DNA from: Escherichia coli
Lineage (GTDB): Bacteria > Pseudomonadota > Gammaproteobacteria > Enterobacterales > Enterobacteriaceae
Reading direction: 5' to 3' (one strand)
NCBI RefSeq assembly: GCF_044647545.1
Contig: NZ_CP172818.1
Length of the DNA stretch: 64,000 nt
Shown: piece by piece, positions 60,899-62,266 of the stretch
How positions within the stretch are numbered: the first letter of the stretch is position 1
Layout of the letters: each line of letters begins with the position of its first letter
Translations under genes and position numbers: made by a program
The notes under the pieces: model-generated
Database searches by the model: none
What the model was told of the DNA's origin: nothing
The model's input: only the letters and a program-made list of their open reading frames with translations

Positions 60899-62266
60899 AT
60901 GAGCACTAAATTAACCGGCTATGTATGGGATGGTTGCGCTGCATCAGGCATGAAGTTATCCAGCGTGGCAATTATGGCCCGCCTGGCTGATTTCAGTAAT
61001 GACGAAGGTGTGTGCTGGCCATCAATTGAAACCATTGCCCGTCAGATTGGCGCGGGGATGAGTACCGTCAGAACGGCTATCGCACGGCTGGAAGCAGAAG
61101 GCTGGTTAACGCGTAAGGCGCGTCGCCAGGGTGATGGTTCATCACCCCACTGTGCGGTGGTGGATGAATATCACGAGCACGCCACCGATGCGCTTTATAC
61201 CACGATGCTTACCGGGATGGGGGCGCGACGTCAGCCACTGATGTGGGCCATCACCACCGCCGGGTACAACATTGAGGGGCCGTGCTACGACAAGCGGCGG
61301 GAAGTTATCGAGATGCTCAACGGTTCGGTACCCAACGATGAACTGTTCGGGATCATCTATACCGTTGACGAAGGCGATGACTGGACCGACCCGCAGGTGC
61401 TGGAAAAAGCCAACCCGAATATTGGCGTGTCGGTTTATCGCGAATTTTTGTTAAGTCAGCAGCAGCGTGCGAAAAATAACGCCCGTCTGGCAAACGTCTT
61501 TAAAACAAAACACCTCAATATCTGGGTGTCGGCGCGTTCGGCGTATTTCAACCTGGTGAGCTGGCAGAGCTGCGAGGATAAATCACTGACCCTTGAGCAG
61601 TTCGAGGGGCAGCCGTGCATTCTGGCCTTTGACCTGGCGCGTAAGCTGGATATGAACAGCATGGCGCGACTTTATACCCGCGAGATTGACGGTAAAACGC
61701 ATTACTACAGTGTGGCCCCGCGTTTCTGGGTACCGTATGACACGGTGTACAGCGTCGAGAAAAATGAAGATCGCCGGACAGCCGAACGCTTTCAGAAATG
61801 GGTGGAAATGGGCGTTCTGACTGTTACCGCTGGTGCGGAGGTGGATTATCGCTACATCCTCGAGGAGGCCAAAGCGGCGAACAAAATCAGCCCGGTCAGT
61901 GAGTCACCCATCGACCCCTTCGGGGCGACCGGGCTGTCGCATGACCTTGCTGATGAAGACCTGAACCCCATCACCATCATTCAGAACTACACCAACATGT
62001 CCGATCCGATGAAAGAGCTGGAAGCGGCGATTGAATCGGGGCGCTTTCATCATGACGGCAATCCCATCATGACCTGGTGTATCGGCAACGTGGTCGGCAA
62101 AACCATTCCGGGTAACGATGATGTGGTGAAGCCTGTCAAGGAGCAGGCGGAAAACAAAATCGATGGTGCGGTTGCACTGATTATGGCGATTGGCAGAGCA
62201 ATGCTGTACGAGAAAGAAGACACGCTGTCTGACCACATTGAGTCCTATGGGATCCGCTCGCTTTAA
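60899..62266 (+). CDS. ymfN: chimeric ORF (former ymfN; oweE + aaaE): replication-initiator-like HTH N-terminus fused to terminase large subunit C-terminal portion
   Basis: ORF track 455 aa; N-terminal wHTH-like segment ([25 protein letters not shown]) then VVDEYHE Walker-B-like motif and RNaseH-like nuclease region with no Walker A upstream. Confidence 0.8.

Follow-up and report, generated by a model that had tools for sequence, protein, structure and literature searches.

Phage lambda carries iterons and ori inside gene O. In the prophage e14 of Escherichia coli K-12, the gene ymfN (b1149) was reportedly described in a 2004 paper as a fusion of a replication gene with a terminase gene. In K-12 RefSeq both halves are now treated as pseudogenes, namely a helix-turn-helix protein without its C-terminus and a terminase without its N-terminus, re-annotated as oweE (b4692) and aaaE (b4693), respectively (b4692-b4693 are listed in PMC4444293). 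As regards packaging, the roles of the main residues of the HK97 large terminase subunit, TerL, are established: K60 belongs to Walker A, E154 to Walker B, and D302, D388 and D471, together with K463, to the nuclease (PMC9410871).

The window, i.e. the whole stretch of 64,000 nucleotides of E. coli contig NZ_CP172818.1 that was analysed, holds icd, ymfD, ymfE, lit, intE and other e14 genes in the K-12 order. Within it, an open reading frame (ORF) of 455 codons plus stop, with an ATG start, occupies positions 60899..62266 of the + strand. This ORF is the already known e14 ymfN (oweE'-'aaaE) of K-12. In fact, both share the locus at icd, the junction nucleotides, the 455-codon ORF and the gene order (ymfL, ymfM, fusion, ymfR, portal remnant, baseplate-J remnant), and they differ across the ORF by 28 substitutions (4 amino-acid changes) and zero indels. 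The fusion itself matters little, as it re-derives textbook-level K-12 annotation. The comparative result is worth more, namely that the break point within the initiator gene is non-random, and the recurrence of this break site is the only part likely to surprise a specialist.

The window backbone is 2.3% diverged from K-12, with 400 of the 471 coding differences (85%) at third positions and a transition/transversion ratio of about 2, and 32 of 115 backbone differences from K-12 are shared with other natural strains. The window thus comes from a different E. coli background, and the idea that it might be K-12 sequence mutated in silico was rejected. Divergence is uneven within e14, which is 100% identical to K-12 at 54000-57500 and 58500-60480, shows a patch of 29 substitutions at 57500-58000, and is 2–4% diverged from 60480 onward. 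The element is a mosaic, the left part of which may have been recently acquired or exchanged, while the right part may have recombined with other prophages. Outside e14, ycfZ (37209-37997) differs from its K-12 counterpart by 71 substitutions and 4 compensating indels, a divergence of about 9%, its neighbours being about 2% diverged. The YcfZ protein allele of the window is common in other E. coli, and the 6.8 kb around the gene match those of CUVET20-PYO4, a strain lacking e14, at 100% identity.

Anatomy and parents of the fused reading frame

The parents were sought by megablast of window positions 60000-63000 against 5426 complete E. coli genomes. Many genomes matched query positions 1-1133 only, covering ymfL, DUF4222 and a 'helix-turn-helix domain-containing protein', and many others matched positions 1131-2850 only, covering the terminase large subunit, ymfR and the portal, while at least 80% of the 3-kb junction-spanning query was present in 282 of the 5426. 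Each half of the ORF is 97–99% identical at the DNA level to intact genes found in hundreds of E. coli genomes, represented here by an initiator gene of 942 nt and 313 aa (L003 8903..9844) and a terminase gene encoding 577 aa (L002 7404..9137). Positions 60899..61132 of the window are 99% identical to nt 1-234 of the former, and the terminase part is 97.6% identical to L002 8001..9137, which lies inside the intact TerL. In the three-way nucleotide alignment, homology to the initiator runs through 61132 and homology to the terminase starts at 61130, the switch taking place within 3 nt. These are the GGT common to both parents (61130..61132; initiator gene nt 232-234 and terL nt 598-600), a 3-nt microhomology which is in frame with both.

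The preliminary description of this DNA had proposed a chimera of an initiator N-terminus with a terminase large-subunit C-terminus, and this abrupt change of parent bears it out. The alignment then suggested for locating the junction does so, although at 61130-61132, slightly upstream of the expected 61140-61170. The junction sequence, CGCCAGGGT|GATGGTTCATC, is identical in K-12 (L001), BS-01 (L173), the IMG/VR locus L082 and the window. A 51-mer spanning it had no match in the GTDB representative genomes, and neither the exact fusion protein of the window nor its YmfL variants occur in an index of 15 billion proteins.

Codons 1-78 (60899..61132, + strand) encode the winged helix-turn-helix, origin-binding type domain of a lambda-O-like initiator, as judged by alignment, Pfam and PHROG. 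The HTH_36 profile (PF13730) matches at aa 23-70 with an E value of 7e-11, overlapping GntR/winged-helix matches extend to aa 76-80, and the fusion aligns with positions 1-81 of phrog_391 'replication initiation O-like' (E 4.5e-31), a profile which the intact 313-aa initiator matches over its whole length (E 1e-134). The type of domain assigned earlier is therefore correct, but its length is 78 residues and not about 85. The cII-like ymfL and the ymfM/DUF4222 region immediately precede the intact initiator gene, in which a 15-bp unit, TCTGACCCGTCAAAA, is repeated 4.3 times in tandem at gene nt 310-373, a segment that e14 has lost. By analogy, these repeats within the coding sequence resemble the lambda iterons and may represent a candidate origin. 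The N-terminal winged helix and the position and repeats of the parent are thus shared with the lambda O-type initiators (PHROG 391), whereas the fusion retains only 78 of the 313 residues and has lost full length, C-terminal domain and repeat array.

The remainder of the ORF (61133..62266, + strand) encodes intact residues 201-577, the 3' two-thirds of the gene for an HK97-type large terminase, according to alignment and to PHROG (phrog_9, terminase large subunit, E 1e-131). HK97 TerL (gp2, PDB 6Z6D) and the intact terminase are homologous (E 4e-25) over both the ATPase and the nuclease domains, with the Walker B Glu, the Asp triad and the Lys conserved. Like HK97, the parent phages carry an HNH endonuclease and a P27-type small terminase subunit (TerS) upstream, the gene order in intact relatives being HNH-TerS-TerL-YmfR-portal. 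In the fusion, the TerL_ATPase profile (PF03354) is matched at positions 118-174 of 178 only (aa 78-134, E 3.6e-9), whereas TerL_nuclease (PF20441) is matched at positions 4-284 of 286 (aa 146-436, E 3e-33), the RNase-H-like nuclease domain (61334..62206, + strand) being complete by both Pfam and the HK97 TerL alignment. The Walker B segment VVDEYHE (aa 87-93; 61157..61177, + strand) aligns with 6Z6D such that E90 corresponds to HK97 E154. Moreover, D245 (61631-61633), D339 (61913-61915) and D422 (62162-62164) are the equivalents of D302, D388 and D471, and K414 (62138-62140) is that of the active-site K463.

No counterpart of Walker A was found in the fusion, since the PRKNGKS of the parent (aa 116-122) falls in the deleted part. 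This confirms the earlier reading of a terminase C-terminus with VVDEYHE and an RNaseH-like nuclease region but without a P-loop. Compared with HK97 TerL, the first 200 residues are missing, including the Walker A (K60) region and the adenine-binding Gln, and the fusion would therefore not be a packaging ATPase. As a large terminase it thus keeps Walker B and a nuclease with three Asp and has lost both Walker A and the TerS/portal context, as TerS and HNH are absent beside it and only ymfR, followed by a 408-nt portal remnant, lies downstream. In all, the protein is presumably unable to act either as an initiator or as a packaging motor. The folding of aa 79-145 is doubtful, given that the ATPase core is cut through its beta-sheet, while nuclease activity may possibly have been kept, the catalytic Asp triad being conserved.

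The deleted interval and the origin of the scar

In six IMG/VR contigs, which carry both an intact initiator and this terminase, the points equivalent to the junction lie 9.5–11.0 kb apart. In L023, PHROG assignments place in this interval the remainder of the initiator; RusA and a DUF968/HNH protein; a PerC-like activator, a repressor-like protein, a regulator of KilA-N type and a Q-like antiterminator; two holins with an endolysin and an Rz spanin; and an HNH endonuclease, TerS and nt 1-597 of terL. Undeleted relatives therefore hold what the preliminary description supposed an in-frame internal deletion to have removed, i.e. the 3' part of the replication gene, the late regulators, the lysis genes and the 5' part of the terminase gene. 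The ORF is very probably a deletion scar, and not a designed protein, in which initiator and terL became joined by the loss of about 10 kb in an ancestor of e14.

The ancestor would have been a lambdoid prophage equipped with an HK97-type head-packaging module. A single illegitimate recombination would have joined initiator nt 234 to terL nt 598 at the 3-nt GGT, removing about 10 kb and keeping the reading frame by chance. The predicted product combines the initiator winged helix (78 aa), an orphan ATPase piece with Walker B but without Walker A, and a complete nuclease domain. The same step would have cost the element its candidate origin repeats and the remainder of the initiator, along with Q, which activates the late genes, the lysis cassette, HNH, TerS and the ATP-binding part of TerL, and with such losses it could neither replicate autonomously, lyse nor package. 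The comparison thus confirms that e14 was deprived of replication, late regulation, lysis and packaging by one 10-kb deletion.

The deletion had also been offered as the account of how e14 became defective. The lesion is real, but it is one of at least two internal deletions. A second scar, at 62849|62850, joins nt 408 of the portal gene to a baseplate-J fragment (beeE|jayE of K-12), as determined by alignment to the intact portal gene L002 9331..10572, by the Pfam Baseplate_J match of 62842..63633 and by the K-12 annotation. This second scar takes out the head genes and most tail genes.

As the remnant stands at the end of the SOS-inducible cro-ymfL-ymfM operon, its transcription on induction is probable. 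Directly upstream of the fusion, 60551-60889 corresponds to ymfM (112 aa, phrog_1170), a reported SOS-inducible division inhibitor. A 59-aa DUF4222 ORF in another frame (60730-60909) overlaps ymfM and is annotated by RefSeq in its place, and the stop of this ORF overlaps the start codon of the fusion.

Selection and recombination at the fused reading frame

The explanation that best survives beside a deletion scar is that the fusion has become a domesticated protein under selection, for instance a DNA-binding nuclease or a dominant-negative origin-binding domain which excludes related phages, although we consider this improbable. The grounds for it are several. The fused ORF is open, with zero indels, in all four full copies that could be read (window, K-12, L082 and BS-01), which are about 2% different, and the differences between copies are mostly synonymous, 24 of the 28 that separate the window from K-12 lying at third codon positions. 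Both the nuclease catalytic residues and the winged-helix domain are complete, and the gene belongs to an SOS-inducible operon. Furthermore, the neighbouring ymfR and portal remnant (62295-62817) provides a contrast, as it shows 18 frameshifting single-base indels and about 17 substitutions with respect to K-12 and every other copy, and its best match among 1343 genomes is 95.8%, while the adjacent 1368-nt fused ORF has no indel at all. These indels could stem from decay in place, from import of a decayed copy absent from the sampled genomes or from a local sequence error. A conserved open ORF beside such an indel-rich remnant is unexpected for a long-neutral pseudogene, and counts against an inert scar.

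Nevertheless, most of the ORF variants in the site table form haplotype blocks common to intact terminase alleles. Over ORF nt 288-519 the window has the haplotype of L002, whereas K-12 there largely follows that of L045. Since these variants are shared with intact terminase alleles, the open ORF and the synonymous bias point to recombination and not to selection, and the codon-position bias was for the same reason rejected as proof of selection on the fusion. The simplest reading of the site patterns is that functional prophage copies donated the variants through gene conversion or recombination. Such traffic between phages and defective prophages has been documented in E. coli (PMC3945230). 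Recombination with intact copies does not explain the 3 non-synonymous and 9 synonymous changes that are private to the fusion lineage, a small sample; four window-specific variants at ORF nt 1272-1302 are present in none of 1359 genomes.

Other observations also speak against domestication. Truncated derivatives of the fusion exist (P0005, 388 aa, and P0008, 354 aa), the interrupted ATPase core makes a well-folded product doubtful, and a Keio deletion strain of ymfN is available and has been used in a genome-wide phenotype screen. In addition, other breaks at the same initiator site are out of frame (L061 and L095), so that preservation of the frame is no rule.

A natural two-domain family of helix-turn-helix plus terminase nuclease in functional phages, which the preliminary description named as the finding that would overturn it, is hardly credible. 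It was looked for among 5.8 billion proteins and not found, PF13730 and PF20441 occurring together only in the two E. coli fragments P0005 and P0008, both shorter derivatives, and in six relatives each half belongs to an intact gene of its own, the two genes being about 10 kb apart. The relatives returned by the search were TerL proteins of 575-577 aa with PF03354 and PF20441, from Escherichia, Salmonella, Klebsiella, Serratia, Xenorhabdus, Photorhabdus, Proteus, Leclercia and others. Four further E. coli proteins (P0013, P0014, P0046 and P0063) join parts of this terminase to unrelated domains, such as a tail sheath, an N6-adenine methyltransferase and others; deletion fusions of terL seem to be common in prophage remnants.

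Equally implausible is an assembly or sequencing artefact of the window, to which the odd indel cluster just downstream and the GC-only junk at the same locus in the related public assembly HS-01 might point, as the junction is nucleotide-identical in finished K-12 genomes and in independent isolates. In E. coli HS-01 (NZ_CP172817.1; L172 7080-7165), a GC-only low-complexity stretch lies between a frameshifted icd and a terminase fragment. This locus was considered as a further-decayed e14 and rejected, the junk beside its terL fragment being an apparent assembly or polishing artefact in a public genome labelled 'complete'.

Breaks in the initiator gene

The deletion scar of e14 was compared with other breaks in the same initiator gene. 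The e14 break falls at nt 234|235 of the gene (61132|61133 of the window; L003 9136|9137), beside the candidate origin repeats, where the intact gene reads …CGCCAGGGT|AACCGCAATG… (CAGGGT|AACCGC), within the sequence GGGTAACC. At least 10 distinct junction types, in different prophages, have homology ends at initiator nt 231-240, while only three types fall outside this stretch, with their ends at nt 176, 617 and 717. The left side of the gene is kept in six of them: in e14 the partner is terL, in ETEC4090 (L005 21130) a DUF968/HNH gene, in frame, in PS00260.4 (L006 6234-6237) a tail-fibre gene, also in frame and annotated as an intact 1047-aa CDS, in L086 RusA, and in both L061 and L095 an out-of-frame sequence. 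The right side is kept in four, where the gene is joined to the yfdP start region (yfdO of K-12 CPS-53; L007 4001, L138), to codon 5 of ymfL (L130) or to other upstream sequences (L131 and L139).

The scan could detect left-keeping breaks at nt 234-942 and right-keeping breaks at nt 1-235. If breaks were uniform, the probability that five further left-keeping types would fall within 6 nt of the e14 site would be about 2e-9, by our own arithmetic. The parental partners share 2–8 nt with the initiator site, the T|A step always being spanned: T at -1 and a purine at -2 are found in 9 of 9 partners, and A at +1 in 8 of 9. Moreover, among the partial matches to the initiator gene in a spread sample of complete genomes, the 12 longer ones also end at nt 234-237, and the two others are short (≤53 nt, query 446-498).

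K-12 itself provides a second case. The pseudogene yfdO of its CPS-53 (KpLE1) prophage derives from a gene of this initiator family (98% identical) and is broken at the identical nucleotide, but what survives there is the other side of the gene, nt 235-942, preceded by the yfdP start region, after a separate deletion in a different prophage. Between them, e14 (nt 1-234) and CPS-53 (nt 235-942) thus give K-12 two complementary parts of the gene, the products of two separate deletions.

Taking these junctions together, we are inclined, with some reserve, to regard the e14 junction as one case of a nucleotide-precise hotspot at which at least 10 independent deletions have occurred, which implies a site-specific nick, break or recombination that repeatedly inactivates prophages. 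A hotspot at initiator nt 234|235 appears to be previously undescribed; neither a described hotspot nor a link between yfdO and oweE was found in the searchable literature, which is no proof of absence. Should prophages decay repeatedly because of a defined lesion or recombination site within the initiator gene, this would constitute a concrete and testable route by which lambdoid prophages become cryptic, and, if true, the hotspot would also explain why K-12 carries two complementary initiator halves in two prophages.

Several known mechanisms were considered for the break site and rejected. A Pin/Hin-type crossover site gives a poor half-site match, with the break off the central dinucleotide, and the gyrase consensus is matched only partially, with a wrong base at +1. 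Restriction-ligation at GGTNACC does not fit either: terL has a GGTAACC 9 nt upstream, yet those 9 nt are absent from the product, and the CPS-53 partner lacks a site of this kind. Comparison with IS ends or targets, Tus/Ter and integron secondary sites produced no convincing match. An imperfect hairpin of 28 nt, which stops 3 nt short of the break, has a folding energy like that of shuffled sequences (z -1.05). Finally, GGAT|AACCGG in RusA was rejected as a second general hotspot, as only two junction types were found in 162 loci, both with the initiator gene. In these two, L065 (IMG/VR 2619619133_000006) and L086, initiator nt 617 and nt 234-239, respectively, are joined to the same RusA nucleotide (GGAT|AACCGG).
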